A DNA stretch of 64,000 bases from a virus (lineage: Duplodnaviria > Caudoviricetes), in the IMG/VR virus record IMGVR_UViG_3300020045_015293, positions 24,641 through 88,640 of that record. The stretch is one strand, 5' to 3'. Position 1 is the first letter of the stretch. Each line of letters starts with the position of its first letter. The notes under the pieces were generated by a model that saw only the letters and a list, made by a program, of their open reading frames with translations, was not told the origin of the DNA and ran no database searches. Shown piece after piece: positions 19,725 through 35,620 of this stretch. A program made the position numbers and the translations under genes.

Positions 19725-19788
19725 ATCAATTAACGAGGACGTTAGTGCACGCCTACAATGCAGTAATGCAAGAGGATAACCGCAAATT

Positions 19789-19861: not shown

Positions 19862-19889
19862 CTTGAATTTTCGAAAAGATCTTTGAAAT

Positions 19890-20042
19890 AAATAACGTTC
19901 TTAATCAGGAATAGATTTTACAAAAAATGGGTGGGGTAATAAATTATCAAAAATAATAAATAGATCTCCTGCTTGGACTTTAAAATGGGTGAAAAGTAAT
20001 ATTCCAGAAATTGAAAAAATTTGTTTTAAACATTCTTTTTAA
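19890..20042 (+). pseudogene. remnant of an HNH endonuclease C-terminal repeat
   Basis: SGIDFTKNGWGNKLSKIINRSPAWTLKWVKSNIPE resembles NSRVEFNEMGWGVELSKILNMTP..LP of 18483-19397; no start, frame broken near 19902. Confidence 0.6.
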
Positions 20043-20044
20043 AA

Positions 20045-20118
20045 CGAGGTAACGCATAAATGATGGTGCACCTGCCTTCCAAGTAGGAATAGAGCCGGTT
20101 TGATCCCGGTTACCTTGA
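20045..20118 (+). tRNA. trnG: tRNA-Gly(TCC)
   Basis: cctgc-cttccaa-gtagg. Confidence 0.8.
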
Positions 20119-20224
20119 CAACATACACATTCCCCTTCTCATAAGAACAGGGTGCTCAGAGTGTGTTTTTTATATGCCGAGTTGAAAGGGAATCCACAGT
20201 GGGGACACTGCCCCTCGGCTCCAT

Positions 20225-20297
20225 GCGAATATAGCACAATGGCTCAGTGTACCGGCTTGCCAAGTCGGTGATGACAGTTCGAATCTGTTTATTCGCT
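20225..20297 (+). tRNA. trnG: tRNA-Gly(GCC)
   Basis: ccggc-ttgccaa-gtcgg; U73. Confidence 0.9.
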
Positions 20298-20358
20298 CAT
20301 AAATAAAAAATTATGATTATTCTTTCTGGTTGATGTCTTGACTCTGTAAAAAGAATCA

Positions 20359-20583
20359 ATGATGAATCAAAACAAACAAATTCGACTTTGGAGAGTCGAG
20401 TGGGTCCATAAAAATGGATACCGTGCCCCTCATTATTGGGTTGAGGCAAAAGTAGTAATAAGGAAAGGTAATGTGAATGAAAAGGAAACAAGAAAAAATG
20501 CAGTAAAAGCTGCAAAACAACACTCAAGATTAGGTGATTTTCCTAAAACTTGGTATTGTAAAATTACAGATGTTAGTGAATAA
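20359..20583 (+). CDS. hypothetical protein
   Basis: ORF between tRNAs. Confidence 0.55.
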   Translation: MMNQNKQIRLWRVEWVHKNGYRAPHYWVEAKVVIRKGNVNEKETRKNAVKAAKQHSRLGDFPKTWYCKITDVSE

Positions 20584-20669
20584 CTAATATCTTAAAAATA
20601 GATTCCACGCTTCCCATCTCGAAGGATAATGAGAAGAATAATACGTCTTTCAAGAATCTATTTTTATAT

Positions 20670-20741
20670 TGCCACTTGGTGTAATGCGTAGCACAAGAGT
20701 TTTTGGAGCTCTTTGTTTCAGTTCGAATCTGAAAGTGGTGA
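20670..20741 (+). tRNA. trnQ: tRNA-Gln(TTG)
   Basis: agagt-ttttgga-gctct; U1 start. Confidence 0.8.
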
Positions 20742-20749
20742 CTTAAAAT

Positions 20750-20833
20750 GGAGGATAGCATGCAAGGTGCATAACTGGCTTTGAACCCCAGGCCAACGCT
20801 GATCGCGTTGAGGTTTCGATACTTTATCCTCCG
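20750..20833 (+). tRNA. trnS: tRNA-Ser(TGA)
   Basis: Loop tttgaac; long variable arm caacgc/gcgttg; G73. Confidence 0.85.
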
Positions 20834-20836
20834 CAA

Positions 20837-21028
20837 AAATAAAAAATGAGCTATCGCTATATTAATATAGAGGAAACTCAGGACTCCGTTGTTTAATTTG
20901 GAAGACGAAAGTCGTTATACCAAAGAGGGAGAAACTTAAAACAGTCTATATGGATGAACAACATGGACAAGGTAAAGGATTAGACAAATGATAGCATAAA
21001 ACAGAAACCTGGTTACTATTTTTTATTT
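20837..21028 (+). ncRNA. rnpB: RNase P RNA, minimal (~190 nt)
   Basis: CR-I-like gaggaaactcagg, CR-V-like acagaaacctggtt forming P4 with bulged U; P1 aaataaaaaat/attttttattt; P2 ctatc/gatag; ggtaaa and tagacaaatga segments. Confidence 0.85.
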
Positions 21029-21030
21029 TA

Positions 21031-21103
21031 TCCCGCTATGGTGAAATGATATCACTTCAGTTTGTGGATCTGAAATTATAAGTTTGAATCTTATTAGTGG
21101 GAC
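21031..21103 (+). tRNA. trnH: tRNA-His(GTG)
   Basis: Loop ttgtgga; C73. Confidence 0.8.
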
Positions 21104-21111
21104 ATTAAAAA

Positions 21112-21202
21112 GGAAGTTAAACCCATGATGGCATTGGGGAATACCTGCTAAGTATTTTATCGGCTATAAACCGATACGTGAATTCGAGTTTCACAACTTC
21201 CG
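21112..21202 (+). tRNA. trnS: tRNA-Ser(GCT)
   Basis: aatac-ctgctaa-gtatt; long variable arm tatcgg/ccgata; G73. Confidence 0.85.
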
Positions 21203-21207
21203 CATAT

Positions 21208-21286
21208 TGGATAGTACCGAGCCATCCTGATAAGATGGATAATCGTAGCGGTGTTGTAAACGTGGGTTCAAATCCCTCCTATCCAA
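21208..21286 (+). tRNA. atypical tRNA-Ile(GAT) lacking a D-arm, with long variable region
   Basis: Acceptor tggatag/ctatcca; ccatc-ctgataa-gatgg; only 7 nt between acceptor and anticodon stems. Confidence 0.6.
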
Positions 21287-21288
21287 CT

Positions 21289-21428
21289 AAACTTCTGAGT
21301 CATAAACAAAAAAACCACTCGGGTTCAAGGGAACTATACACCATGCAGAGTAAGTATTTGCAAATGCTTGACTCATAAGAAAACCTTAAAGTATAGTAGT
21401 TGTGAGGGTGACACAAACTTAGAAGTTT
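21289..21428 (+). ncRNA. unassigned structured RNA
   Basis: aaacttctgag/cttagaagttt, actatac/gtatagt, gagtca/tgactc pairings. Confidence 0.45.
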
Positions 21429-21448
21429 AACTTATTTAATTTTTAGTT

Positions 21449-22003
21449 ATGAAATATAAAAAACTTAAAGTTCCTGAAACATCATCTTGGGATAGAAAAC
21501 CAACATTTTTTAGACGCTATTTCCCAATTTGGTTAAAAGAATTTGTTGAAGGAATAAAAAATATTATTAGATGGATTCCAACTATATATAAAGATAAAGA
21601 TTGGGATCAATATTTCATAATGAAATTACTTCAAAAGAAAATTGAACATCAAAGAGAATATTTAATTTATCATAATCGTCACATAGGAATAGAACAAGAT
21701 AATAGAAATATGACTTGGGTTCTAAATTTAATTGAGTACCAAATCAATGATTATTATGAATTAGAAAAATATGATTATGTTGAATTTGGAAAAAAATTAC
21801 TTGGACCTTATAAATCTGAGAAATTAGATAATTATTTAGTAAAATATCCAGGAACTATTCGAAGAGTAAAACAAAAATATCCTAATATAAACTTTGATAA
21901 TAAAGATAGACTTTCATTGTATGTAGGTATATATAATCAACAAAAATGTAATCATTTAATTTGGAAAATAATGGAAGAAAAAAGTGGGCAATGGTGGGAT
22001 TAA
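21449..22003 (+). CDS. hypothetical phage protein
   Basis: IIRWIPTIYKDKDWD...WWD; 184 aa ORF. Confidence 0.6.
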   Translation: MKYKKLKVPETSSWDRKPTFFRRYFPIWLKEFVEGIKNIIRWIPTIYKDKDWDQYFIMKLLQKKIEHQREYLIYHNRHIGIEQDNRNMTWVLNLIEYQINDYYELEKYDYVEFGKKLLGPYKSEKLDNYLVKYPGTIRRVKQKYPNINFDNKDRLSLYVGIYNQQKCNHLIWKIMEEKSGQWWD

Positions 22004-22056
22004 TACTTTTTTCCAAAGTTTTTTTCTTACCTTTATGCTAGTAAAAAGGTTATGAA

Positions 22057-22404
22057 ATGAAAGTAATTCCTAAAATAGAACCTAAAAAAGTTTATACTTT
22101 ACGAACTTTTTATGATGCAGGTATAATTCATATACATACTTTAGTTTATTTAAGATTTCAACATATATTTAATTCTAATATATATTATATACCACATCGT
22201 ACTAGTGAGTATTTAAAATCATTTAAATTTTTAAATTTAAATTCAGCAAAAAATGCACCAATACCAAGTAACCCTGAAATTAAATCATTTGAAAAAGATA
22301 TTGAAATTAAAATTTGTGGGGAAGTATTTGAAGCTGAAAGAATCGAAGCAGATACTAAATTAATATCAGATATTATTGGGGAAAATGGTATTATTTTATT
22401 ATAA
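22057..22404 (+). CDS. hypothetical protein
   Basis: ORF after CCAAA promoter at 22013. Confidence 0.55.
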   Translation: MKVIPKIEPKKVYTLRTFYDAGIIHIHTLVYLRFQHIFNSNIYYIPHRTSEYLKSFKFLNLNSAKNAPIPSNPEIKSFEKDIEIKICGEVFEAERIEADTKLISDIIGENGIILL

Positions 22405-22413
22405 TTTTTTAAA

Positions 22414-22710
22414 ATGAATGTAATTCCTGAAACATTTTTGAGAAAGTTAACTATTAGGAACAATGCAATAGTTATCCCTAAGAAAATAGATGAATTAAAA
22501 GACAGATCTAATGAATATAAACAATTATTTGAAATGCGTTTACTTTCATTTGTTCATGATGGAACAATAACAAGAGCGGTGTGTGAATTGTTAAATGATC
22601 TTCCTTATGATCATAATTTTAATATTGCACAAGAAAATAGAGAAAAAGGTAGTATTATTTCATTACCAATAAGTATTTTAAAGTTTGTTAAAGAACCTGA
22701 GGTTTCCTAA
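22414..22710 (+). CDS. hypothetical protein
   Basis: ORF. Confidence 0.5.
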   Translation: MNVIPETFLRKLTIRNNAIVIPKKIDELKDRSNEYKQLFEMRLLSFVHDGTITRAVCELLNDLPYDHNFNIAQENREKGSIISLPISILKFVKEPEVS

Positions 22711-22744
22711 ATTTCGATATATTTATATACAACAAAAAATTATT

Positions 22745-22834
22745 ATGTTTTTACAAAGTTTGATAAATACAAATATTCTTACGTTAGATTATATGGATAA
22801 TCTAAATGAGGATAAATCTGTTACATCAGGCTAG
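22745..22834 (+). CDS. putative leader peptide MFLQSLINTNILTLDYMDNLNEDKSVTSG ending in TAG
   Basis: Short ORF after ATATTTATA (22719); last codons are complementary to the 5' arm of the downstream terminator. Confidence 0.5.
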   Translation: MFLQSLINTNILTLDYMDNLNEDKSVTSG

Positions 22835-22860
22835 ACCAAATCAATATATACCATTCGTAA

Positions 22861-22893
22861 AAGCCTGATGCCCCCGAAGCGTTAGGCTTTTTT
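22861..22893 (+). terminator. intrinsic terminator (attenuator-type)
   Basis: aagcctgatgc-ccccgaa-gcgttaggctt followed by a T run. Confidence 0.8.
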
Positions 22894-22959
22894 AGTTCTT
22901 TGAAAATATTTTTTTACCCAAAATTTTTTACATAATTTTATATTATAAAATATAAGGTT

Positions 22960-23220
22960 ATGAGTCAAGTAATAAATAAAAAAATCAACCTAAATTTAGT
23001 AGGTTTAGATGGAAATGCATTTTCTATTATGGGAGCATTTCAAAAACAAGCCCGTAAAGAAGGATGGAGTAAAGAGGAAATTGATGCTGTGATAACAGAG
23101 ATGCAATCTGGAGATTATAATCATTTGTTACAAACAGCAATGGCACATTGTGAAGATCCAGAAGATGAAGAAATGGATGAAAATTATGTAACTGATGAAG
23201 ATGGAGATTTTAATTATTAA
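22960..23220 (+). CDS. hypothetical phage protein
   Basis: LVGLDGNAFSIMG...GDYNHLL motif; acidic tail. Confidence 0.65.
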   Translation: MSQVINKKINLNLVGLDGNAFSIMGAFQKQARKEGWSKEEIDAVITEMQSGDYNHLLQTAMAHCEDPEDEEMDENYVTDEDGDFNY

Positions 23221-23231
23221 AATACAAATTT

Positions 23232-23426
23232 ATGTATTTAAATACACATAAAGATCGTGGTGAATCAACTTACCAATTAGCCAATAATGTAGGCGATAGA
23301 GGAGGATGGGTTAAATTTGATTGGGATAAAGATGTTCAAGCTGTTAAACCACATTATGAAAATACAATTGTTGTATTAAAAAATGGTACACATTATTTGT
23401 TATTTGGAAGAGGATATGGTGTATAA
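23232..23426 (+). CDS. hypothetical protein
   Basis: ORF. Confidence 0.5.
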   Translation: MYLNTHKDRGESTYQLANNVGDRGGWVKFDWDKDVQAVKPHYENTIVVLKNGTHYLLFGRGYGV

Positions 23427-23438
23427 AAATTAATTTTT

Positions 23439-23681
23439 ATGGCTAAATTATATACAATAGAAGAAATTAAAACATATATAACATCACAAGATTCACTTGG
23501 TGATGCCTTATATAACTTGAATGAAGATAATGTTGATAAAGCAGTATGGGAAGATAAATTTCAAGCTATAAAAGAAGAAATAATGGATGATAGTTTTGAT
23601 GGTAATGAAGATGAATTAATGAGAGAAACAGAAGAACTATTTAAGAAAAGATATAAATTTGATTATTACGATAAATATTAA
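23439..23681 (+). CDS. hypothetical acidic protein
   Basis: ORF. Confidence 0.5.
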   Translation: MAKLYTIEEIKTYITSQDSLGDALYNLNEDNVDKAVWEDKFQAIKEEIMDDSFDGNEDELMRETEELFKKRYKFDYYDKY

Positions 23682-23685
23682 AAAT

Positions 23686-23757
23686 GGACTGGTAACTTAA
23701 AGGCAAAGTAGCATCCTGTTAAGATGAAGAGTGTGGTATCGTGATCCACCCAGTCCG
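23686..23757 (+). tRNA. trnN: tRNA-Asn(GTT)
   Basis: Loop ctgttaa; G73. Confidence 0.8.
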
Positions 23758-23869
23758 CAAAAAAATTAATAGTACTCATAGTTTAAAACTGTTATAAAGG
23801 AGTAGTTAAATTAGAATATGGAGACCATATTTAGCTATTAGTTCTTTAACATTATAAATTTTAAAAAAA

Positions 23870-23940
23870 GGGATAACGTCCAGGGCAGATCACAACGACT
23901 GTAAATCGTAGGTGTTGAGTTTCGATTACTCATTATCCCA
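23870..23940 (+). tRNA. trnY: tRNA-Tyr(GTA) with short variable region
   Basis: acga-ctgtaaa-tcgt; acceptor gggataa/ttatccc, A73. Confidence 0.75.
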
Positions 23941-24066
23941 CTTAAATAAAAAATTCTTTTTCCAAAATTATTTGTTTAATTTTATAAAAGTAGAAATTTT
24001 TCAAAAACCAAACTGTTATGTTGGGAAAAAATATCTAAACAATATTTTTGACTAAGTAAACATAAC

Positions 24067-24402
24067 ATGAAAGTAATATCTCAATCCTATTTTAGAAATC
24101 AATATATTCGAGAAATAATTGATAACTTTAATTGGGAAAGAATTCATAAAGTGATGGTTTTTCTTCAATGGAAATATTTAAATGAAGAAATTCCTGAAAT
24201 TGATGATTTAAAATTATTAAGTAAAAATTTACTTGACAATATTTGGTTATCAACAACTAAACAACAGAATGAAACATGGAGCATAAAATCAGGTGGTTTT
24301 AAAGCAACAGCTTCATACAATTCAAATAAAAAAAGAATTGACTTTTTAAAATTGGAATTTATACTTAGTGATTATTATAAAGAAGAAAATGATGAAGGAT
24401 AA
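24067..24402 (+). CDS. hypothetical protein
   Basis: ORF. Confidence 0.55.
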   Translation: MKVISQSYFRNQYIREIIDNFNWERIHKVMVFLQWKYLNEEIPEIDDLKLLSKNLLDNIWLSTTKQQNETWSIKSGGFKATASYNSNKKRIDFLKLEFILSDYYKEENDEG

Positions 24403-24628
24403 AGTAACTATAGTAACAGCTGATTGGAAAGATATTGATGGATTAGCTAATGCTTTTAAAAAAGCTATAAGAAAATTAGGAGCTCATATTTATAATCATC
24501 CTGATTTTGAAGGTAGCGATACTTATGGTTTTATTGTTAGTGATAAAAAATTGAGTAGAAAGAAAATTAAAGATAATTATTGTATTCCAAAAGAAGAAAT
24601 AGATTATATTTATCCAATTGGAGCATAA
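24389..24628 (+). CDS. hypothetical protein
   Basis: ORF; start moved. Confidence 0.5.
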   Translation: MMKDKVTIVTADWKDIDGLANAFKKAIRKLGAHIYNHPDFEGSDTYGFIVSDKKLSRKKIKDNYCIPKEEIDYIYPIGA

Positions 24629-24633
24629 AAAAC

Positions 24634-24813
24634 ATGAATAGGGAAGAAAGAGAAGAAAGAATACAACGTGCCAAAGAAGAATTTGGTGAACAAGTTGTAG
24701 CAGAAGTTAGAGAAGTTGTATCAATGAGTGATCCTGATGGAGCTTGGAGTACATATAGAGATTTTGAAAAGTATGATCATTGTGCATGTATTGAAATGAT
24801 TTATTTTGAATAA
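24634..24813 (+). CDS. hypothetical protein
   Basis: ORF; start moved to MNREE. Confidence 0.5.
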   Translation: MNREEREERIQRAKEEFGEQVVAEVREVVSMSDPDGAWSTYRDFEKYDHCACIEMIYFE

Positions 24814-25052
24814 AAAGTTCTTTGAAGACAAGAACCTGATAACTAACAGGCACTTTTAAAAGTTAGGAAACAGGGAATATGCGGTGCCAGCATGTGGATA
24901 GCTACTAAATAATATTAAAAGTAGTTCCGGTGAAAGGATGTTTCACAACCAATCACTGAAAAAATAAAAATGAATAATAGAACGTTTTGGACGTCTGAAC
25001 GACAGCTCGAAAGAGTTATTACGGTTCCCTATTATTCATTAACTTGATTAAA

Positions 25053-25172
25053 ATTATTAGGTGGTAATGAGTAGAGTTACATCGCGTGGAATGGTTCCAC
25101 ACCCAACTCAGGATTAGGCTCTGCCGTTCAATTCGGCCAGTTAATCTCTACCAAATTTTCCCCTAAAATAAT
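25053..25172 (+). ncRNA. UACAUCGC-motif RNA, copy A (contains a T-arm-like hairpin)
   Basis: ttagg/cctaa, tggtaat..aaattttcc internal loop, gtagag/ctctac, ttacatcgc; gccg-ttcaatt-cggc. Confidence 0.6.
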
Positions 25173-25176
25173 TATA

Positions 25177-25257
25177 AATTATTGGATGGTTATAAATCAG
25201 TTTCATCGCTAATGGTCAATTTGCAAAAAATACTGATTTAAATTTTCCTCCAAAATT
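25177..25257 (+). ncRNA. UACAUCGC-motif RNA, copy B
   Basis: ttgga/tccaa, tggttat..aaattttcc, aaatcagt/actgattt, ttcatcgc. Confidence 0.6.
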
Positions 25258-25262
25258 AATTT

Positions 25263-25335
25263 GGCCCTGTCGAATAATGTGTTAGTTCGTTGCCCTTTCA
25301 CGGCAAAAATTTCGGTTCAAATCCGTGCGGGGCTA
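25263..25335 (+). tRNA. trnE: tRNA-Glu(TTC)
   Basis: ttgcc-ctttcac-ggcaa. Confidence 0.85.
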
Positions 25336-25357
25336 CTAAAAGAAAAAGGTTGCGTAA

Positions 25358-25945
25358 ATGAATATATTAAAATTAGATGATTTACCTCTATATGACTTAG
25401 GTAATACAATTCAAATATCAGGAATGATATTACAAGGTAATGATAAAACTTACAATGTATTTTTTCCAGATAAAAAAATTGAGAATCCTGAATTAGTAGA
25501 AGTAAATGAAGATGAATGGAAAAAATTGTTGCTACAATTAGATACTTTAGAAACAGTTTTATTTCCAGGTAATCCAGGTGCTAAAATAGTTGTACGTAAA
25601 TCTCAACGTATAATCGAATCAGCAATGATTTGGAAAGTTTTTAGGAGAGATAATTATACTTGTCAGTATTGTGGTGCAAGAGATAAACCATTGTCAGTTG
25701 ATCATGTAGTTCTTTGGGAAGATATGGGTGGAACTGTTGAAGAAAATTTATTAACTGCATGTTCTGCATGTAATATGAAAAGAGGTAATATGAGGTTTTT
25801 AGATTGGTTGGATAGCGATTATTATAATAAATGTTTGAAAAATTTTGGTAATGAAGATCAACAATATAATCAAGATAAAAAATTGTTAGATTTTTGGATA
25901 ATAGCAAGAGATTTACCATTACGTACAAATAAAAGAGGGAGGTAA
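25358..25945 (+). CDS. HNH endonuclease family protein
   Basis: VFRRDNYTCQYCG...SVDHV...GG...NLLTACSACNMKRG. Confidence 0.85.
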   Translation: MNILKLDDLPLYDLGNTIQISGMILQGNDKTYNVFFPDKKIENPELVEVNEDEWKKLLLQLDTLETVLFPGNPGAKIVVRKSQRIIESAMIWKVFRRDNYTCQYCGARDKPLSVDHVVLWEDMGGTVEENLLTACSACNMKRGNMRFLDWLDSDYYNKCLKNFGNEDQQYNQDKKLLDFWIIARDLPLRTNKRGR

Positions 25946-25947
25946 TT

Positions 25948-26232
25948 ATGAATACTATATTAATAATACTTTGTAGTTGTTTATTTCTTATTCAGTTAGG
26001 ATTAATATTAAGATATTTTAATATTGAAAAAAATAATGATTGGAATTTTTTAGGACAAGGAGGATTGGTAAATTTAATTGCATACCCTATAATGGTATGG
26101 ATAATGTTTTTAATGTGGAAAGAAAGTGAGAATTATTATAAAAAAATAGTTGAAAAAAATAAAATAGAACAAAAATATTCACCAACTTATACTTCAGAAA
26201 AGGGGGATACTTTGTTTACAAGAGTAAAATAA
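25948..26232 (+). CDS. hypothetical membrane protein
   Basis: Two hydrophobic segments. Confidence 0.5.
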   Translation: MNTILIILCSCLFLIQLGLILRYFNIEKNNDWNFLGQGGLVNLIAYPIMVWIMFLMWKESENYYKKIVEKNKIEQKYSPTYTSEKGDTLFTRVK

Positions 26233-26236
26233 ATAT

Positions 26237-26304
26237 GGAGGGGTAGCTCAGAGTAGAGCACTGTCTAAACAACAGGGGTCGGTAATTCAGTTTGCCCCCT
26301 TCCG
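26237..26304 (+). tRNA. degenerate tRNA (Asp-like acceptor, AAA in anticodon loop)
   Basis: ggagggg/cccttcc, G73; ctgt-ctaaaca-acag; irregular T-arm. Confidence 0.45.
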
Positions 26305-26327
26305 CAATAATTAGTTCTTTAAAATAT

Positions 26328-26380
26328 GGAGATGAATGTTTGTAATAGAACATTTTGGTTATTCGGTTAATCCATCTCCA
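26328..26380 (+). ncRNA. mini tRNA-like hairpin element
   Basis: ggagatg/catctcc+A, one internal hairpin aatgtt/aacatt, ttcgg loop. Confidence 0.35.
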
Positions 26381-26386
26381 CTACAT

Positions 26387-26499
26387 GCCGGGAAAGCAAA
26401 AACATACTGTTTTAAACTTTCCCCGAAAGGTGGTAACTAAACAGTTACATCGCAATACAATCAACATTTGTTAAGATTCCCGCAAGGGTCCCGGCACCA
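26387..26499 (+). ncRNA. UACAUCGC-motif RNA, copy C: circularly permuted, closed by acceptor-like stem with ACCA end
   Basis: gccggga/tcccggc-A-CCA; actgtttt-aaactttcc-cc-gaaa-gg-tggtaac-taaacagt-tacatcgc. Confidence 0.6.
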
Positions 26500-26505
26500 T
26501 TTTGA

Positions 26506-26597
26506 AACATTCGCGCCTGATGGTTAATGATCATTAAGACTGTGAGGCTAGCAGTTGACCCCAACACTTAAGTCAGTGGGGTATGGCGACGAATGTT
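26506..26597 (+). ncRNA. unassigned cloverleaf-like RNA
   Basis: aacattcgcgcc/ggcgacgaatgtt closing three hairpins. Confidence 0.45.
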
Positions 26598-26601
26598 AAA
26601 C

Positions 26602-26676
26602 AGCCACGTAGTTTACTGTGTGTAATCGGGAAATTGTCGATTTCCGTCGGGGCGAGTTCGATTCTCGTCGTGGCTG
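26602..26676 (+). tRNA. trnD: tRNA-Asp(GTC)
   Basis: ggaaa-ttgtcga-tttcc; G73. Confidence 0.8.
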
Positions 26677-26686
26677 CATATATTTA

Positions 26687-26779
26687 TACACCCACAGAAT
26701 GAATCTAACTTAAGGGTACTAGTAAAAACTTAAGGTAATGCGTTTGAAATTTGGTTCAGGTTTCGCCTGTGTGGGTGTA
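26687..26779 (+). ncRNA. unassigned structured RNA directly after an ATATTTATA box
   Basis: tacacccacag/ctgtgtgggtgta terminal stem. Confidence 0.4.
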
Positions 26780-26844
26780 TAAAAATCTCAATGTGTAAAT
26801 TAACTAGTGCATGACACCGTAGCGTAGAAAGTTGAGATGAATAT

Positions 26845-26918
26845 ACTGATATAGCTCAGAGGTTTAGAGCAGGATGCTTATACCATCAAGGTCGGGATTT
26901 CAAAATTCTCTATCAGTA
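26845..26918 (+). tRNA. trnI: tRNA-Ile(TAT)
   Basis: gatg-cttatac-catc; acceptor actgata/tatcagt, A73. Confidence 0.75.
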
Positions 26919-26935
26919 CAACAAAATTTTTATAT

Positions 26936-27015
26936 CGTGGGGGAGTGGAAAGGACACACAAACCATTCAAGCCTCATAAGCTTTGAGATAGCCAGTTCGA
27001 TTCTGGTCCCCGCAA
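26936..27015 (+). tRNA. trnM: tRNA-Met(CAT), initiator-like (C1:A72 mismatch), enlarged D-loop
   Basis: Loop ctcataa; cgtgggg/ccccgca. Confidence 0.75.
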
Positions 27016-27099
27016 CAAACTATTCTTATAATAGTATGAATTGGAAAATAAATTTCCAATTAAAAAACTCCCGAATTCATTCTTGATATAGGGGAGTTA

Positions 27100-27171
27100 T
27101 GGCGCAGCCTCAGGTGAGGAATTTTGGCTCATATCCTAAATTAGACATGGTTCAATACCAGTATGCGCTAC
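27100..27171 (+). tRNA. atypical tRNA(CAT), Met or Ile2
   Basis: tggcgca/tgcgcta; loop ctcatat; 4-nt D-loop; T-loop ttcaata. Confidence 0.55.
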
Positions 27172-27175
27172 ACCA

Positions 27176-27308
27176 GATGTAATAGTGTAAGCTAGAAGTA
27201 CATCAGCAATTGGGATCTTACAATCCGTGAATTGTGGTTTAGGTTAACACGAAGGTAACGAAGTGCTTTAAGTCACCTAGCAGTTAGAATACCACTAGAA
27301 GTTCTAAC
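27176..27308 (+). ncRNA. unassigned pseudoknot-rich RNA
   Basis: gatgta/tacatc with loop tgtaag pairing cttaca; gtggt/accac; gttagaa/ttctaac. Confidence 0.4.
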
Positions 27309-27313
27309 AAAAT

Positions 27314-27388
27314 GCCTCTTTAGTAGTAATTGCAGCAGCTATCCGCACTTGTAATGCGGGGGTAACAGTTTGAATCTGTTAAGGGGCT
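27314..27388 (+). tRNA. trnT: tRNA-Thr(TGT)
   Basis: cgca-cttgtaa-tgcg; acceptor gcctctt/aaggggc. Confidence 0.85.
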
Positions 27389-27522
27389 CAAAGAAATTAA
27401 TATAAGTTTTATGACCCCCCTGGTTACAAACAAAATATTAGTTTCTTTACCGGTTACGGGTTTATTTTGTTGGTTTTTATCCCGTAAAAATTAAAAGAAA
27501 AACCAATAGAATTAAACCCGAT

Positions 27523-27800
27523 GTTAAACGCTGTTATAAAATTTTAGCGATGAAAGTTAAATATGTGAAATTACAAAGCGGAGAGGTAATAATGTTTCCT
27601 CCCGTTATTGAACACGATACATTCAAATACCTGAACCCAATAACGGCAGGATTTTGTTGCATCGGAAATGATAAAGTAGAGTGCTTTGGAGAAAGTTACT
27701 CACTCAAATTGAAGGCAGACGAAAAGCAAGATACATTAGATGCAACAAAACATTATTTTGGAATAGAGGCGATGATAAAAATTTTATAATTGCGTTTAAC
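27523..27800 (+). mobile_element. integron-like gene cassette (GTTRRRY ... ORF ... RYYYAAC)
   Basis: GTTAAAC 27523-27529 and GTTTAAC 27794-27800 within 23-bp imperfect inverted repeats around ORF 27550-27789. Confidence 0.55.
27550..27789 (+). CDS. hypothetical cassette protein
   Basis: KYV......IMFP..I.H...; AGFC; higher GC than neighbours. Confidence 0.6.
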   Translation: MKVKYVKLQSGEVIMFPPVIEHDTFKYLNPITAGFCCIGNDKVECFGESYSLKLKADEKQDTLDATKHYFGIEAMIKIL

Positions 27801-27801
27801 A

Positions 27802-27872
27802 GCGTCATTGGTATATTGACTGTGCCTTCGTCTCTAAAGCGAAAGAAAGGAGTTTAATTCTCTTATGACGCT
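27802..27872 (+). tRNA. amber suppressor tRNA (anticodon CTA)
   Basis: Acceptor gcgtcat/atgacgc+T; D gtat/gtgc; ttcgt-ctCTAaa-gcgaa; T-arm aggag-tttaatt-ctctt. Confidence 0.85.
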
Positions 27873-28013
27873 CTAAAATAAATTAAAAGTGTTTACCTTT
27901 ATTGTAATATGTATAGCAATAATGGAATTAATAAGGATGACACTAAAATCAATTTTTAAAAAATGAAGCGAAAACAGTAAGCTACCCTCAAGCTAAAATG
28001 AGGGATTAAGTAT

Positions 28014-28085
28014 GCCCTCGTAGCAAACAGGTGTAGGCAACAGACTTTTAATCTGTGAGGTTTGGATCGTTACCAAACGGGGGTA
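28014..28085 (+). tRNA. trnK: tRNA-Lys(TTT)
   Basis: acaga-cttttaa-tctgt. Confidence 0.85.
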
Positions 28086-28134
28086 CTGTTAAAAAATTTT
28101 TTATTTTCCAAAACTTTATATATACCTTTATATA

Positions 28135-28410
28135 ATGAAAATATATTCTAAAAGTCAATTATTTTCTAAAAATAAGGAATGGTATTGGAAAATGAACAAT
28201 GAAAATGAAGTAAGAAATATTTTAAATTATTTAGCACAAAATGGATTTATTTGGAATGGTTCAAAATGTAAAGCTAATGAATTACATAAAGTATTTGAAT
28301 TTAATTATCCTTGGTATTTAGAATATAGTGATGGTACTTTGTCATATAATATAGGAGGAGAAATTAGATCAACTCAGAGTCGTATTCATCATATTCATTT
28401 GAATTTTTAA
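28135..28410 (+). CDS. hypothetical protein
   Basis: ORF after CCAAA promoter at 28108. Confidence 0.55.
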   Translation: MKIYSKSQLFSKNKEWYWKMNNENEVRNILNYLAQNGFIWNGSKCKANELHKVFEFNYPWYLEYSDGTLSYNIGGEIRSTQSRIHHIHLNF

Positions 28411-28578
28411 TAATATGAAAAAACATGTAGCATCAACAATGATATATAAAGGTGAAATAACACAAGCAATAACTTGGTTAAATAAATTACCTAGAGAATA
28501 TCCAGTGTGGAGATTAAAAGGTATAGAAAAAGGAGATATATTAGTTTGGACTACTGAAAATGGATTAAAAATTTGGAA

Positions 28579-29052
28579 ATGAAAAAATTAGAAATTGAAC
28601 GTCGTTTTTTATTAAAAAAATTACCTGATCTAACTAAACCACATAAATTATTTATAATAAAACAATATTATAATAAAACAGAAGGTGGGGTAATAAGATA
28701 TAGAGAATCCAGAGAGTATGCAAATTTTCCTAACAAGTATGAAAAAATAATTAAGTTAAAAGTATCAAAGGGAATAAATAATGAAGAAGATTTTGAAATT
28801 GATCAATTACAATTTTTCAATGAAATTCAACAAATAAAAAATTTAAAGTCAATTAAAAAACATCGAATAGTTTTTGAAGAAAATGGATTAAAATGGGAAG
28901 TTGATAGTTTCAATGATTTAAAATTAATAATTTGTGAAGTTGAATTAAAATCACTGAAACAAAAAATTCAAATTCCTGAACATATACAAAAAGTATTAAT
29001 TAAAGAAATAACTGGGGAATATGAATTTAGTAATTATAATTTAGCACAATGA
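28579..29052 (+). CDS. CYTH-domain protein (adenylate cyclase/triphosphatase-like)
   Basis: EIERRFL, I.Q.Y, K.R, WEVD.F, EVEL, Y.FSNY.LA motifs. Confidence 0.85.
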   Translation: MKKLEIERRFLLKKLPDLTKPHKLFIIKQYYNKTEGGVIRYRESREYANFPNKYEKIIKLKVSKGINNEEDFEIDQLQFFNEIQQIKNLKSIKKHRIVFEENGLKWEVDSFNDLKLIICEVELKSLKQKIQIPEHIQKVLIKEITGEYEFSNYNLAQ

Positions 29053-29546
29053 TTAAAAAAATAACAACATTAATATTATCAAGTTTTACATCTATATTAA
29101 TGCTAGCTAATTTTAAACCATTAAATGAATTAAGATTAAAATCTAAATTTTCAACACTATTGAATGTAAGTATTAGTGAAATAAAAAATTTAAATTTTTA
29201 TGAATTTTTAAATAGTTGGTTAGGCACAAGATACAAATATGCTGGTAATACAAAATATGGAGTTGATTGTTCAGGATTTACTCAAGAAATATTTAAAGCA
29301 ATTTATAATATTAATTTACCACGTACATCACGTGATCAATTTAAAGTAAGTAATAAAATTGATAAAAGTGAATTACAAGAAGGAGATTTGTTATTTTTTA
29401 AAACAAAAGGTAAATTTATATCTCATGTAGGAATATATTTACAAAACAATAAATTTATTCATGCATCAGTAAGTAATGGAGTAATAGTATCAGATTTAAA
29501 TTCACCTTATTATAGTTCTAAATTTTATAAAGCAGGTAGAATATGA
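29049..29546 (+). CDS. NlpC/P60 cell-wall peptidase (Spr-like)
   Basis: WLGTRYKYAG....GVDCSGF, LPRTS, GDLLFF, SHVGIY...FIHAS. Confidence 0.9.
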   Translation: MIKKITTLILSSFTSILMLANFKPLNELRLKSKFSTLLNVSISEIKNLNFYEFLNSWLGTRYKYAGNTKYGVDCSGFTQEIFKAIYNINLPRTSRDQFKVSNKIDKSELQEGDLLFFKTKGKFISHVGIYLQNNKFIHASVSNGVIVSDLNSPYYSSKFYKAGRI

Positions 29547-29715
29547 AACGTTTTGTAGCAATTAGATTAGTTTCTAATTTAAAAAATATTTGTAATAGAG
29601 AAAATGTTCATCATGGATCATATTTGATGAAAGGTAGTTATAAAAGATTTATGAAATTTCAAAAATAATTTTTATGAATAAGTTTTTTACTAAAGCATCA
29701 ATAAATTTAAATAAA

Positions 29716-30075
29716 ATGAATAACTAGAAATTAATTATTATAACCAGGAAAGATTTAACACCAGGTTACCAAGCTGTACAATCAACACATGCAGCAATCG
29801 ATTTTTGTTTTAAATACCCAGATATAGCCAAAGAATGGCATTAGGTATCAAATTACTTATGTCAAGTATCATGTGAAAATGAAGAACACTTAAGAAAATA
29901 TGTGTTAAAAGCTAAACAAAGAGGAATTGAATATATTGAATTTTATGAACCTGATATAAACAATGAGTTAACAGCTATTGCTTTAGAACCAGGTGAAAAA
30001 AGTAAAAAATTAATTTCAAACTTACCACTAATGTTAAAAGGATATAATAATGAAAGTTTGGATATCAAAAATTGA
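29716..30075 (+). CDS. Pth2-like peptidyl-tRNA hydrolase with two in-frame TAG codons (codons 4 and 43); absent from the ORF track
   Basis: MNN*KLIIITRKDLTPGYQAVQSTHAA...EWH*VSNYL...FYEPDINNELTAIALEP...NLPL; TAG at 29725 and 29842, TGA stop at 30073. Confidence 0.8.
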
Positions 30076-30232
30076 AACAGAAGATTGTGAAGAATATTAT
30101 TTAGGTTTTAATTCACAACCAACTGAAAACCAAGTAAAAAAAGAATTTTTCAAAGATCATGGAAATATTTATGAAGAAGAAGATTGGGGAGTTTGTATAT
30201 CACATGATATATTTGAAGTTGAAGTAATATGA
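30050..30232 (+). CDS. hypothetical acidic protein
   Basis: ORF. Confidence 0.5.
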   Translation: MKVWISKIETEDCEEYYLGFNSQPTENQVKKEFFKDHGNIYEEEDWGVCISHDIFEVEVI

Positions 30233-30312
30233 TTATACTTTATATAATAATAGGAATTGGAGTAATATTTCAAGGATATTTATTAATTAAAGATGTTTTG
30301 AAAAAATAAAAT

Positions 30313-30386
30313 GGCTCTGTAGCCCAACGGGAGAGGCAATAACCTTAGGAGTTATCAAGGTGTCGGTTCGAATCTGACTAGAGCTA
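30313..30386 (+). tRNA. trnL: tRNA-Leu(TAG) with short variable region
   Basis: ataac-cttagga-gttat; A73. Confidence 0.8.
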
Positions 30387-30395
30387 CTATATAAT

Positions 30396-30469
30396 GGTCC
30401 TGTAACCCAACTGGAAGAGGTAACAAACTTAAAATTTGTAAAGTGTCGGTTCGAATCTGATCAGGACTA
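30396..30469 (+). tRNA. trnL: tRNA-Leu(TAA) with short variable region
   Basis: acaaa-cttaaaa-tttgt; A73. Confidence 0.8.
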
Positions 30470-30474
30470 CTAAT

Positions 30475-30563
30475 GCCTAGATGGTGAAACTGGCAGACAC
30501 AAATCATTCAAAATGATTCGACCGATAATAAAGGTTTTGAAGGTTCGACCCCTTCTCTAGGTA
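30475..30563 (+). tRNA. trnL: tRNA-Leu(CAA)
   Basis: aatca-ttcaaaa-tgatt; long variable arm. Confidence 0.85.
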
Positions 30564-30575
30564 CTAATAAAATAT

Positions 30576-30809
30576 ATGAAAATATATCCTCCACTTGTAA
30601 TTAAAGCCTATGAATTTACTGATGGATGGAGCAATTGGGGTTATGGTTGGTTTGTATTGGGAATGAAACGTCCTTGTAAATGGCTTGGTAAAAATTTTAA
30701 ATATAATAATATTACTTATCATATTGATTTATGGAGTGATAATATTATTACTATATCAAGAGAAGAAAAAATAATTTTTCGTTTTCTAAAATTTATTATT
30801 CAAAAATGA
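30576..30809 (+). CDS. hypothetical protein
   Basis: ORF. Confidence 0.45.
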   Translation: MKIYPPLVIKAYEFTDGWSNWGYGWFVLGMKRPCKWLGKNFKYNNITYHIDLWSDNIITISREEKIIFRFLKFIIQK

Positions 30810-31360
30810 TCAAACTAAAAGATATATTATTAGAAAAAAAAGGGGATAAATATGAAACTGGAGCAGTTGTATTAAATGTTATTATTCCAAAACAATTGCT
30901 TCATTCCAAAATATCTAAAGAAGATTTATTTCAAGAAGAAGGAGATAGGACTTATGGTATTGAAGATGAACCTCATATAACTTTATTATTTGGATTACAT
31001 AGTGATGAAATAATAGATAATGATATTAAAAAATGTATTTCTGAATTTACATTTCCTGAGTTAATACTTCATAATGTTTCATTATTTAATAATGATAATT
31101 ATGATGTATTAAAATTTGATGTACTTGATAAAAGTAAAACATTAGTTAAATGTAATGTTGCTTTAAAACAGTTTCCATATAGCAATGATTATCCTGAATA
31201 CCATCCTCATTGTACTATAGCATATATTAAACCAGGATTGGGTGACAAATATGTTAAATTATTTAAAAAATTAAAATTTGTTGTAGAACCAGAATTATGT
31301 ATATATAGTAAACCTGATGGTTCAAAGCAAAAATTTGGAATTTCCAAAGTTCGTTTTTAA
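30806..31360 (+). CDS. 2H phosphoesterase, T4 gp57B/Acb1-like, with MIKLKDILLE N-terminal leader
   Basis: Two HxT motifs (EPHITLLFGLH, YHPHCTIAY). Confidence 0.8.
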   Translation: MIKLKDILLEKKGDKYETGAVVLNVIIPKQLLHSKISKEDLFQEEGDRTYGIEDEPHITLLFGLHSDEIIDNDIKKCISEFTFPELILHNVSLFNNDNYDVLKFDVLDKSKTLVKCNVALKQFPYSNDYPEYHPHCTIAYIKPGLGDKYVKLFKKLKFVVEPELCIYSKPDGSKQKFGISKVRF

Positions 31361-31381: not shown

Positions 31382-32044
31382 ATGGAACAAAACATTCAAG
31401 AAAAATATACAAATTTATTAAATGAATTATATCGTTCATTTGATTTTTTTAATGAATTTTTTTGTCAAGGAAAATTAAATAAACCAATTATTACTACACA
31501 AGGTGAAAAGCGTAAAGGTAAAACTTGGGGATGGTTTGGAAAAGATTTTTGGACTGAACATAGTGGTGAAGAACATAATAAATTAAATGAAATTAATTTA
31601 ACTGCTGAATCATTACATAGAGAACCAAATGCTGTTTTATGTACTTTATTGCATGAAATGGCTCATTTAAAAAATTCTCAAGAAGGTATTTTTGATTGTA
31701 CTACAACTCAATATCATAATAAAGAATTTAAGAAAACAGCTGAATTTTTTGGATTGATTGTTGAAAAGATGAAAGCAAGAGGTTGGGCAACAACTACATT
31801 AGGAGAAAAAGCATTAGGTGCTATTGAATTATTAAAACCTGATGTTTCATTATATAAAATTGTAAGAACACCCCCTTATAAATTAGCAAAAGATCCAACA
31901 GTAATTAATTTAAATGTGTCGTTGGATTATGAAGATAAAGTTGAATATTTAACTTCAAGATATGGTAAAAAACGTGAAATGACTGAAGCTGCAATTGATA
32001 TGTTATATCAACATGAAAAAAGTCCTAAACCAGAATATGTATAA
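31382..32044 (+). CDS. SprT-like zinc metalloprotease domain protein
   Basis: TLLHEMAH...H (YHNKEF). Confidence 0.8.
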   Translation: MEQNIQEKYTNLLNELYRSFDFFNEFFCQGKLNKPIITTQGEKRKGKTWGWFGKDFWTEHSGEEHNKLNEINLTAESLHREPNAVLCTLLHEMAHLKNSQEGIFDCTTTQYHNKEFKKTAEFFGLIVEKMKARGWATTTLGEKALGAIELLKPDVSLYKIVRTPPYKLAKDPTVINLNVSLDYEDKVEYLTSRYGKKREMTEAAIDMLYQHEKSPKPEYV

Positions 32045-32797: not shown

Positions 32798-34363
32798 ATG
32801 AAATACAACAAAAAATCAATGACTGCTGTATCAACAGTACAAACACATCAAGGTGGAATGGGTTTCCAACTTGAACCAAAATTAGAATTAATTGCATTAC
32901 TTGCTTCAGGTATTGAAAACAAGTATTATGAAAAAGAATCTGAACGTGAACAACGTTTAAATAAATTAGTATCAGAAATAGCTGTGAAAGATAAAAATTT
33001 TGTAGCTAAAGCATTAATATATGCTCGTACTAAAATGGGTCAACGTTCTGTTACTCATATAGGAGCAGTTAATTTAGCTAAATTTTTAAGTGGTGATGGA
33101 TTAGGTTCTCGTTTTTTCTCAAAACGTGATAGAAAAGAAAATAAAGGAGGAATAGTATTCCGTTTAGATGATATGCTTGAAATAGCAGCATGTTATCAAG
33201 CTAAAAATCCAAATACAAAAACAAGAAAAAATGGATCACCTTCAATGACATTGCCAAATTCTATTAAAAAAGGATTTAAATCAGCTTTAGAAGCAGCTGA
33301 TGAATATGAATTAGCTAAATATCAAGGTAAAACAAGAGACATATCATTAGTTGATATTTGTAATTTGGTTCATCCTAAGCCATCTAAAAAAATGGTACCA
33401 GTATTTAAAAAATTGATGAATGGTGAATTAAAACAATTTAATACTGTTGAAGATAAAAACTCTGCTGCTGGGCAAGAAGTGGCTGCAGCGATTGCAAGTG
33501 GAGAAATGAGTGCAACTGAAGCTAAAGTTGCTTTACAAGAAGCAAAAGAAGAAAATTATGCTGAACTAATAAGAAATAAAAAAATTGGTTATTTAGCATT
33601 ATTACGTAATTTACGTAATATTTTAAAAAATACCACTGATAAAACACTTATTAATGATGCTTGTGATTTATTAACAGATGCTAAATTTGTAAGAAATTCA
33701 TTAGTGTTTCCTCACCAAATTGATATAGCATTAGAAATAATGTTATCTGAATTTGGAGTTTCAAAAATGGGTAAATTTGCTACTGCTTTGAATACAGCAT
33801 ATGAATTAGCAATTCCAAATTTAACTGAATTATTTACTTCAGGTAAAACTGCAGTTGTATTTGATTCTTCAGGTTCAATGAGTGCATCTATTATGTTAAG
33901 TAATAAAAGTAGAGGTAGCGAAGCTGCTTTAGATAAAGCTGTTTTAATAGCTGCTACTTTAGCTAAAGGTATAGGTGCTGATGTTTATACATTTGCAAAT
34001 AATTGTCATTCTATTTCTTATAATCCAGGTGATACTGTTAATACTTTGAAGAAACATTTTAAATCTAGTGCTCATGCTGGAGGAGGAACATATTTTGGTT
34101 CAATATTCCAAGTTTTAGGAACTAAATATGATCGTGTATTTGTTATTTCAGATGAACAAGGTGCTGATTCATTAGAAAGAAGTTCATATTCAAATACTCA
34201 TATTTACTCTATAAATTTATGTGGTTATGGAACTACAATGTTTAAACCAGGTAATAAAGTTTATAGATTATTTGGATATGGAGCTGATATATATGAATTA
34301 ATTAAAAAAGTAGAAGTAGATCCTAAAGCAATATTAGCTGAAATTGAAGCAATTCAAATATAA
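32798..34363 (+). CDS. rsr: Ro60/TROVE-domain RNA-binding protein with C-terminal vWA domain
   Basis: THQGGMGF, R...G.RS, YEL.KY, LVHPKP, ALLRNLRN, FDSSGSM MIDAS, GGGT, VISDEQ. Confidence 0.92.
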   Translation: MKYNKKSMTAVSTVQTHQGGMGFQLEPKLELIALLASGIENKYYEKESEREQRLNKLVSEIAVKDKNFVAKALIYARTKMGQRSVTHIGAVNLAKFLSGDGLGSRFFSKRDRKENKGGIVFRLDDMLEIAACYQAKNPNTKTRKNGSPSMTLPNSIKKGFKSALEAADEYELAKYQGKTRDISLVDICNLVHPKPSKKMVPVFKKLMNGELKQFNTVEDKNSAAGQEVAAAIASGEMSATEAKVALQEAKEENYAELIRNKKIGYLALLRNLRNILKNTTDKTLINDACDLLTDAKFVRNSLVFPHQIDIALEIMLSEFGVSKMGKFATALNTAYELAIPNLTELFTSGKTAVVFDSSGSMSASIMLSNKSRGSEAALDKAVLIAATLAKGIGADVYTFANNCHSISYNPGDTVNTLKKHFKSSAHAGGGTYFGSIFQVLGTKYDRVFVISDEQGADSLERSSYSNTHIYSINLCGYGTTMFKPGNKVYRLFGYGADIYELIKKVEVDPKAILAEIEAIQI

Positions 34364-35112: not shown

Positions 35113-35592
35113 ATGAATAAAATATTTAAAACATTAGGAACAAGAGAAGAAGTTGACTTAATACCATATATTACAGAATATTTAATTAAATATCCAGAAA
35201 CTGAAATATTAATTGGTTGTGATTCTCAAAATAGAAAACGCAATACTGTATATGCAACTTGTGTAGTATTATATAGGCCCCAAAAAGGTGGTCACGTATT
35301 ATATGCACGTCAAGAATTACCAAGAGTACGTGTTATTAAAGGTGAATTTGATAAAATGCGTTTATTAAATGAAACTTGGTTTTCAGTAGAAGTAGCTGAA
35401 GCAATTAGAGAAGGTGTTGGTAGAAGGGCAACATGGATTGATATTGATATAAACAATGACAAAAAATGGAAAAGTAATACTGTATTAGCAGAAGCTTTAG
35501 GTTTAGTAACTGCATATGGATATTCACCAAGGTATAAAAATTCTCAATTTACACCTGTTGTAACATATTGTTGCGACAACTTAGTAAAGTAG
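35113..35592 (+). CDS. RNase H-like YkuK/DUF458 family protein
   Basis: ILIGCDSQ, GGHVLY, RLLNE.W.SVE.A, IDIDIN motifs. Confidence 0.8.
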   Translation: MNKIFKTLGTREEVDLIPYITEYLIKYPETEILIGCDSQNRKRNTVYATCVVLYRPQKGGHVLYARQELPRVRVIKGEFDKMRLLNETWFSVEVAEAIREGVGRRATWIDIDINNDKKWKSNTVLAEALGLVTAYGYSPRYKNSQFTPVVTYCCDNLVK

Positions 35593-35620
35593 AGGAATTA
35601 AAATTTAAAATAAACCTATA

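Follow-up and report, generated by a model that had tools for sequence, protein, structure and literature searches.

A conserved early in-frame stop codon in a Pth2-like gene of standard-code phages as a probable translational gate opened by a phage suppressor tRNA

Introduction

The prfB gene, which encodes release factor 2 (RF2), contains an early in-frame UGA that is escaped by a +1 frameshift and gives negative feedback by its own product. The bar minigenes of phage lambda are separate elements that are toxic in hosts defective in peptidyl-tRNA hydrolase (Pth), and very short chains at a stop codon are prone to peptidyl-tRNA drop-off. In recoded phages, a phage tRNA reads stop codons within genes in a host that uses the standard code, and this has been suggested to hold back expression for as long as the tRNA is missing (Borges et al., 10.1101/2021.08.26.457843; Lak phages, PMC8346664). 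The authors who described phage XacN1 could not identify the targets of its suppressor tRNAs (PMC5852040), and the targets were left open for Atu_ph07 (PMC6102473) and phiKp24 (PMC8386662). Here we describe a gene for a Pth2-like protein (pth2) at positions 29716 to 30075 of a 64,000-nucleotide stretch of phage DNA (Caudoviricetes; IMG/VR record IMGVR_UViG_3300020045_015293, positions 24,641 to 88,640), the whole of which is called the window below. The gene is interrupted by two in-frame TAG codons and lies downstream of a gene for a tRNA with anticodon CUA, tRNA(CUA).

As in prfB, an early in-frame stop in a gene for a translation factor would sense decoding versus termination; here, however, the frame stays in phase, escape would be by means of a separate co-encoded tRNA, and the arrangement would be feed-forward. 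As with the bar minigenes, an open reading frame (ORF) of 2 to 5 codons and its stop are tied to peptidyl-tRNA hydrolase biology, but here the mini-frame is joined in phase to the hydrolase-like gene itself. Recoded phages (code 15 crAss-like and Lak phages, and phages with code 4) also combine a suppressor tRNA with stops inside genes; in contrast to them, the phages considered here use the standard code, the stop codon ends other genes, only one or two genes are gated, and the position of the stop is fixed at codons 2 to 6. The preprint on recoded phages (10.1101/2021.08.26.457843) mentions no hydrolase. An engineered Escherichia coli suppressor-tRNA feed-forward loop against leaky expression (PMC7969014) apparently follows the same logic, and we assume that in it an amber gene is expressed only with the suppressor and that extra TAGs sharpen the threshold; that circuit is engineered, whereas the present one would be natural, with an enzyme of tRNA metabolism as its target. 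A full-text literature search found no description of a stop-gated pth2. What sets the present case apart from the recoded phages, prfB and the amber circuit is a dedicated cassette of one or two genes in standard-code phages, with a fixed gate and co-variation of stop and anticodon.

Results

The window gene and its tRNA(CUA)

The Pth2-like ORF (29716-30075, + strand) runs from the ATG at 29716 to the TGA at 30073-30075 and comprises 119 codons, including TAGs at codon 4 (29725-29727) and codon 43 (29842-29844). The leader ATG AAT AAC (29716-29724, + strand), which we propose holds the true start, encodes M-N-N; the TAG at codon 4, referred to below as the gate, is followed directly by AAA TTA (K5 and L6), and the readthrough product begins M-N-N-TAG-K-L-I-I-I-T-R-K-D-L. 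Apart from the two TAGs there was no frameshift or other lesion, and the positions of the ATG, both TAGs and the TGA, like the translation, were all as described in the original prediction, which had been made from this DNA alone. The readthrough protein matched the Pfam family PTH2 (PF01981) with 31 bits (cutoff 23; E=3.3e-7) over residues 5-97, equivalent to profile positions 2-104 of 115, and the domain stayed in the same frame past both TAGs, with none of the +1 shift of prfB. Near the gate there was no sign of local RNA structure (z = -0.43), and scans of its surroundings for promoters, terminators and RNA structure yielded nothing over shuffled controls. K5 and L6 were invariant in alignment A3; in alignment A2, L6 was invariant and K5 was conserved in at least 90%. 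Since AAA is not a start codon, K5 and L6 could be translated only by readthrough of the TAG.

The tRNA(CUA) gene, a candidate amber suppressor, was found by ARAGORN at 27802-27873 on the + strand and was backed by the Rfam tRNA model with 42.1 bits (gathering score 29), which substantiated the cloverleaf originally reported at 27802. Its 3' end lies 1843 nt upstream of the pth2 ATG. It is one among 21 ARAGORN tRNA genes in the window and has an elongator-type cloverleaf with a G1-C72 acceptor pair, an anticodon stem (UUCGU/GCGAA) that lacks three consecutive G-C pairs, and atypical D and T loops (T loop TTTAATT). The paired 1-72 end and the anticodon stem lacking three G-C pairs excluded an initiator-like tRNA that would use UAG as a start. 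No close isoacceptor relative of this tRNA was found among the 409 unique tRNAs of the compared loci.

Conservation of the early stop among homologues

In tblastn searches of phage records, the closest relatives were the uncultured huge phages LR756500, LR756501, LR745206 and LR756504 (462-735 kb), and in all four an in-frame TAG stands 2-3 codons past the ATG, just before the domain. Alignment-driven scans of IMG/VR and JGI metagenomes gave 104 further loci, and the loci, designated here by L numbers, were clustered at ~90% identity into 64 homologue clusters. The gated layout of the window gene, that is an ATG, 0-4 codons and a stop in phase with the Pth2-like domain, was kept in 52 of the 64 clusters; the stop was TAG in 49, TGA in two and TAA in one, and the remaining 12 had no gate. 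Leaders were short (M, MK, MT, MS, MN, MNN, MKK, MSL and similar). The leader MNN-TAG of the window recurs in L003, L030, L101, L104 and L108, and L030, on a 96.7-kb contig, has exactly the window layout, with MNN-TAG-K-L and a tRNA(CUA) 1.84 kb upstream. These results demonstrated that homologues in suppressor-carrying relatives keep the in-frame TAG.

Two loci are noted separately. L015 (7951-8010) has no in-frame start and a TGA directly before the domain, together with a mini-ORF, ATG AAG CGG ATC TAA, in another frame; it may be a frameshifted copy or contain an assembly indel. In Atu_ph07, which has a tRNA-UCA, no member of the window's Pth2 clade was found.

Stop codon and anticodon change together

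The stop at the gate matched the anticodon of the nearby suppressor tRNA in 35 of the 35 lineages in which both were seen, the window included: TAG with CUA in 32 (among them the window), TGA with UCA in two (L039 and L079), and TAA with UUA in one (L027). L033 (TAG/CUA) and L039 (TGA/UCA) encode proteins that are 84% identical, with a ratio of nonsynonymous to synonymous substitution rates (dN/dS) of 0.09. At least three independent switches of stop type have occurred. With shared ancestry ignored, a perfect match of stop and anticodon arose by permutation with a chance of 1 in 19,635, and gate and suppressor presence were associated with p=3e-4 (Fisher test). The expectation that an internal TAG would co-occur with a CUA tRNA in relatives was thus borne out. 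The distance from suppressor tRNA to gated gene was usually 0.1-3.6 kb, and the cognate tRNA often adjoins the gene, at 92-335 nt in L010, L012, L013, L024, L028, L070 and L073.

Candidate decoders of less regular form were present in two of the complete huge phages. LR745206 has at 507340-507421 (L142:7340-7421) a GC-rich CUA candidate that is tRNA-Sec-like or allo-tRNA-like, with a score of 28.5 bits, below the gathering score. LR756504 has at 281045-281120 on the - strand (L183:1046-1120) a tRNA that scores well (Rfam 43.4 bits) and has an anticodon loop of 8 nt, AUUCUAAC; quadruplet decoding by this tRNA (UCUA on UAGA) was excluded, since the frame would leave the Pth2 domain. In L017, a tRNA-like gene (8334-8407), for which ARAGORN gave the two-base anticodon '(ct)', directly follows an ungated pth2 homologue.

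Selection behind the stops and the second TAG

In the lineage of L002, L018, L053 and L057, both TAGs were kept over synonymous distances (dS) of 0.46-0.92 with dN/dS of 0.09-0.13. Five other closely related gated pairs gave dN/dS of 0.09-0.17, and more divergent pairs values up to 0.44. For the window gene compared with L001 and L030, the proportion of nonsynonymous differences (pN) was well below that of synonymous differences (pS) both before and after the second TAG. By these comparisons the selection behind the stops is purifying; with dN/dS of 0.09-0.17 in six closely related gated pairs, the sequence after the TAGs does not evolve neutrally, which had been named at the outset as the mark of an ordinary pseudogene.

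A second in-frame TAG was seen in three lineages, each time at a different, variable position (the window; L002, L018, L053 and L057; L013 and L014). At the site of the window's second TAG, relatives have AAA, CAA, AGC or ACC (K, Q, S or T). On this comparison only the first TAG is conserved, and that of codon 43 is specific to the window's lineage. The original prediction had regarded the two TAGs as a "two-key" switch; as a conserved feature this design was not upheld, the second TAGs being at differing surface positions.

Fold and catalytic residues of the predicted protein

An AlphaFold2 model of the readthrough protein, with the TAGs read as Gln, had a mean predicted local distance difference test score (pLDDT) of 91.9 and a predicted template modeling score (pTM) of 0.84. 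The top 11 Foldseek matches were all archaeal Pth2 or human Bit1, with template modeling scores (TM) of 0.71-0.79, and a profile of 20 homologues searched against the Protein Data Bank (PDB) found a Pth2 chain, 2zv3, with E=5.9e-8. The protein thus appears in silico to have a complete Pth2 alpha/beta fold, in common with the archaeal and eukaryotic Pth2 proteins (PF01981; PDB 2zv3, 3erj, 1q7s and 1xty). The model puts the second TAG where helix 35-44 ends, and according to it a product truncated at codon 43 could not fold, because the strands on both sides of this TAG belong to one sheet.

The residues expected at the active site differ. We take the catalytic residues of Sulfolobus Pth2 to be the Lys of the GKGK loop and the Asp of the D-A-G-x-T ('RDAG') motif. 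In the HMMER alignment to 2zv3, 'pg..Yq' stands opposite 'MGkgKM' and 'rEPDinn....qlT' opposite 'RDAGHTQlepgTLT'. Archaeal and eukaryotic Pth2 proteins keep the Lys-rich GKGK loop, whereas the phage clade has P-G-Y-Q in its place, with a deletion of two residues, and 'RDAG..T' is replaced by 'xEPD' with a deletion of four residues, so that the archaeal Asp aligns with Glu. Y18, E78, P79, D80 and T86 are invariant in the phage clade, and the active site may have been remodelled rather than lost. The assignment to the Pth2 family, made originally from sequence motifs, therefore stands for the fold but not for the catalytic residues, where the Lys loop is replaced and the Asp is a Glu; peptidyl-tRNA hydrolase activity, and with it the logic that would couple the enzyme to suppression, is putative.

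The contig and its complete relatives are standard-coded

The window is the final 64 kb of one 88,640-bp contig with a GC content of ~25% and all genes on one strand. With code 11, ORFs of at least 80 amino acids covered 79% of the window, in which the large tRNA island lies, and 94% of the remaining 24.6 kb; counting TAG as a sense codon raised coverage by only ~1.5% (from 0.79 to 0.81 in the window and from 0.94 to 0.95 outside it). The contig of 88.6 kb uses the standard code and is not globally recoded, as the original prediction had held. Of the features of code-15 phages, the contig, which is incomplete, has the phage-encoded tRNA with anticodon CUA (27802-27873) but not the many TAG-interrupted genes and low code 11 density; pth2 was the only frame opened by readthrough in the 88.6 kb that looked coding on both sides of a TAG. 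The use of TAG as a terminator, cited originally at 35592, was confirmed in part. TAG ends the RNaseH-like gene there, and is followed by AGA AAT TAA (35590-35601, + strand), a TAA back-up two codons on; in the whole contig just 2 of 140 ORFs end in TAG, this gene among them, and TAG is therefore nearly avoided. From this rarity it follows that the phage itself would tolerate suppression.

Global recoding was also excluded for three complete genomes, all standard-coded. In LR756500 (462 kb), the closest complete relative, coverage was 0.854 with code 11 and 0.868 with TAG as sense, TAG ended 25 of the 486 long ORFs, and just two candidate merged ORFs appeared with TAG as sense; it has one tRNA(CUA), 1.1 kb from pth2. 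TAG ended 58 of the 704 long ORFs of LR745206 (635 kb), and phage XacN1 (385 kb) has four copies of tRNA(CUA) in its terminal repeats. We scanned genomes for other gated genes, defined as an ATG, 0-4 codons, a TAG and an ORF of at least 80 codons. Convincing early gates were confined to pth2 in LR756500, to pth2 and an adjacent gene for an HD-like protein in LR745206, and to an HD-Pth2 fusion ORF in XacN1; the remaining matches had an ATG just past the TAG or a non-coding look. These genome-wide scans gave no wider amber-gated regulon than pth2 and, in some clades, its HD-like neighbor, and the window's contig held no such ORF besides pth2.

Cultured carriers and an HD-like partner

Gated homologues are present in cultured jumbo phages: Cronobacter phage GAP32 (MAQ-TAG, with an annotated Sup-tRNA 3.1 kb away), Acinetobacter phage ME3 (MT-TAG, preceded at 0.43 kb by a tRNA annotated 'anticodon CTA'), Salmonella phage Arash (ML-TAG), Serratia phage BF (MTH-TAG), Ralstonia phage RsoM2USA (ML-TAG) and Xanthomonas phage XacN1 (MK-TAG). 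The homologue of Klebsiella phage RaK2 is ungated, and no CUA tRNA lies nearby. In several of the GenBank records the gated gene is either unannotated or represented by a C-terminal fragment only, as in L226 (Serratia BF, 286086-286403), L229 (RsoM2USA), L227 (GAP32_397) and L231 (Arash gp84c), likely because gene callers halt at the early TAG.

In the cluster C mycobacteriophages Myrna (L110:3977-4000) and Catera (L111:3968-3990), a Shine-Dalgarno (SD) motif is followed, after one base, by (A/G)TG TAG GTG ACA. The nearby tRNA has a CUA anticodon according to ARAGORN, with U33 and A37, and is entered in GenBank as tRNA-Arg or tRNA-Ser.

A second family with the start ATG-x(-x)-TAG-ATT encodes the HD-like protein, which has a weak Pfam HD match of 20.9 bits (L003:7007-7585; L025:8981-9550; L112:946-1800, which is XacN1 243735-244589). 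In the LR745206 clade its gene follows pth2 at a distance of ~1 kb, and in L035, L040 and L045 it precedes pth2; it was not found in the window's 88.6-kb contig. In XacN1 one MK-TAG gate stands before both domains, the HD-like domain (44% identity) being joined to the Pth2 domain on its N-terminal side, which sets this protein apart from archaeal and eukaryotic Pth2, and from this fusion it follows that the HD-like and Pth2-like proteins are functionally linked.

The site of translation start

Among relatives whose hosts use SD motifs, an SD-like motif precedes the leader ATG by 4-8 nt, rather than following the stop, in eight metagenomic lineages (L018, L008, L046, L045, L040, L035, L059 and L051) and in the cultured phages XacN1 (GAGGA, 8 nt), Serratia BF (GAGGA, 7 nt), RsoM2USA (AAGGAG, 7 nt) and Arash (GAGGA, 6 nt). 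Directly behind the gate there was a purine in all 52 gated cluster representatives, against a background of 57.5%, and never C or T; a purine after the stop favors nonsense suppression in E. coli. ATA followed the gate in two of the 52 and ATC in none, and ATT was present in excess beyond what a conserved Ile residue would predict (see Discussion).

The neighborhood of pth2

The gene lies within a tRNA island (window 17658-30564) that holds the 21 ARAGORN tRNAs and an additional Rfam tRNA match at 20045-20118. An NlpC/P60 gene (29049-29546) lies just upstream of pth2, and beside it is an RNA-repair-like set comprising genes for a 2H phosphoesterase or 2'-5' RNA ligase-like protein (30806-31360), an SprT-like protein (31382-32044), TROVE/Ro60 (32798-34363) and the RNaseH-like protein (35113-35592). 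PHROG and Pfam annotation of the large ORFs of the contig revealed no structural genes. Outside the window, contig positions 1-30 recur exactly at 2377-2406, as a direct repeat or a repeated domain.

Discussion

We propose, with a probability of roughly 0.7, that the early stop is a conserved translational gate and that synthesis of the full-length Pth2-like protein needs the phage suppressor tRNA. The dependence on the suppressor that was originally put forward gained strong comparative support from the conserved early stop, the joint change of stop and anticodon, the purifying selection and the SD motifs before the leader ATG. The feedback loop onto peptidyl-tRNA recycling that was also put forward would be a further, speculative step. 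Ribosomes would start at the ATG at 29716, as the placement of SD motifs in relatives suggests, and release factor 1 of the host would terminate the chain at the UAG of codon 4 or, in this phage, at that of codon 43. Only once the tRNA(CUA) had been transcribed, processed and charged could a residue be inserted instead and the 119-residue protein would result. Output would then track suppressor activity in a feed-forward arrangement, and with two UAGs it would be about the square of the readthrough efficiency, giving a sharper threshold in the window lineage. With the gate so early, an aborted attempt would cost one tripeptide, and the inserted residue would lie in a tail where its identity would be immaterial. 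The product, we speculate, would most likely act on peptidyl-tRNA or N-blocked aminoacyl-tRNA that builds up when host translation is disturbed by the phage tRNA set and by stop suppression.

The alternative that deserves most attention is that ATG-x-x-TAG is an upstream ORF of 1-5 codons, that the Pth2-like protein is made by reinitiation at the next codon (ATT, ATA, ATG or GTG) with no suppressor involved, and that tRNA(CUA) is at most a modulator. In 36 of the 52 gated representatives the stop is followed by ATT, ATA or ATG; in Catera and Myrna the 7-nt spacing of the SD fits the post-TAG GTG, which is the annotated start; in XacN1 an ATG four codons past the TAG is the annotated start; and LR745206 is without a standard suppressor tRNA. 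Reinitiation, however, leaves unexplained both the joint change of stop and anticodon (35 of 35) and the presence of a rare stop in place of TAA in AT-rich genomes, and it would give no functional protein where a TAG also lies inside the domain (the window; L002, L018, L053 and L057; L013 and L014). Moreover, the stop is followed by AAA, AAG, AAT, AAC, AGT, AGC or GGT, none of them a start codon, in the window, L030, L036, L038, L044, L059, L076, L091, Serratia BF, GAP32 and Arash, and the conserved residues begin directly after it; and since ungated L011 (M-I-E-R-G-D) has Ile after its Met, the post-gate Ile may be a conserved residue. We therefore regard reinitiation as unlikely.

We consider it more improbable still that code 15 applies in regions of the phage genome beyond this contig and that the pth2 TAGs are ordinary sense codons. 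The 88.6-kb contig is probably a fragment of a much larger genome (relatives have 429-735 kb), TAG is almost absent from it as a terminator, and recoded phages keep their early genes standard-coded (Borges et al., 10.1101/2021.08.26.457843), all of which would be in keeping with such recoding; but LR756500 is standard-coded genome-wide, as are LR745206 and XacN1, and a random sense codon predicts neither a stop at codons 2-6 of one family in more than 50 lineages nor the TGA and TAA versions with their matching tRNAs. That the gene is a decaying pseudogene, or that its TAGs are assembly errors, might be suspected from two nonsense codons in 119, and seems hardly credible: there is no frameshift, the full-length model (pLDDT 91.9) has a complete Pth2 domain, the low dN/dS of the six closely related gated pairs was found behind the stops, and the first TAG recurs in independent assemblies and in the genomes of cultured phages, a comparison by which this explanation is already refuted for the first TAG.

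Several observations weigh against a suppressor-dependent gate. No suppressor tRNA was found in the available flank of 18 of the 49 TAG-gated clusters, many of which are on short contigs, and LR745206 and LR756504, both complete and gated, are without a standard tRNA(CUA). The suppressor tRNAs, 53 unique sequences in all, differ widely from one another, and nearest-neighbor comparison with the 409 unique tRNAs gave no consistent isoacceptor origin for them. The post-gate ATT, in 32 of the 52 representatives against a background of 4.6%, leaves room for reinitiation, and the SD spacing in Catera and Myrna suits the GTG that follows the TAG, not the NTG in front of it. The archaeal Pth2 catalytic-loop residues are not conserved in the phage clade, and the second TAG of the window was seen in one assembly only.

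Beyond the proposed gate, the cassette might be a self-contained sensor of suppression versus release-factor termination that holds readthrough at a set level and is the seed of whole-genome recoding, an idea that we put forward tentatively and regard as possible but doubtful. On such a reading, a stop reached by a chain of 2-5 residues, with slow termination and high drop-off, would report charged suppressor, and the Pth2-like enzyme, alone or with its HD partner, would act back on peptidyl-tRNA or on the acylated suppressor tRNA.

If full-length synthesis does depend on the suppressor, these results name a specific conserved target of suppressor tRNAs that annotation pipelines have missed, and would explain why standard-code jumbo phages carry such tRNAs. 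Stop suppression would then serve as a dedicated single-gene switch in standard-code phages, a plausible first step to full recoding and a natural counterpart to the engineered amber-gated feed-forward circuits. A divergent Pth2-like enzyme, with an HD-domain partner in some phages, would be tied to suppressor-tRNA biology, and, with carriers in culture among the phages of Salmonella, Cronobacter, Acinetobacter, Xanthomonas, Serratia, Ralstonia and Mycobacterium, the idea is directly testable.

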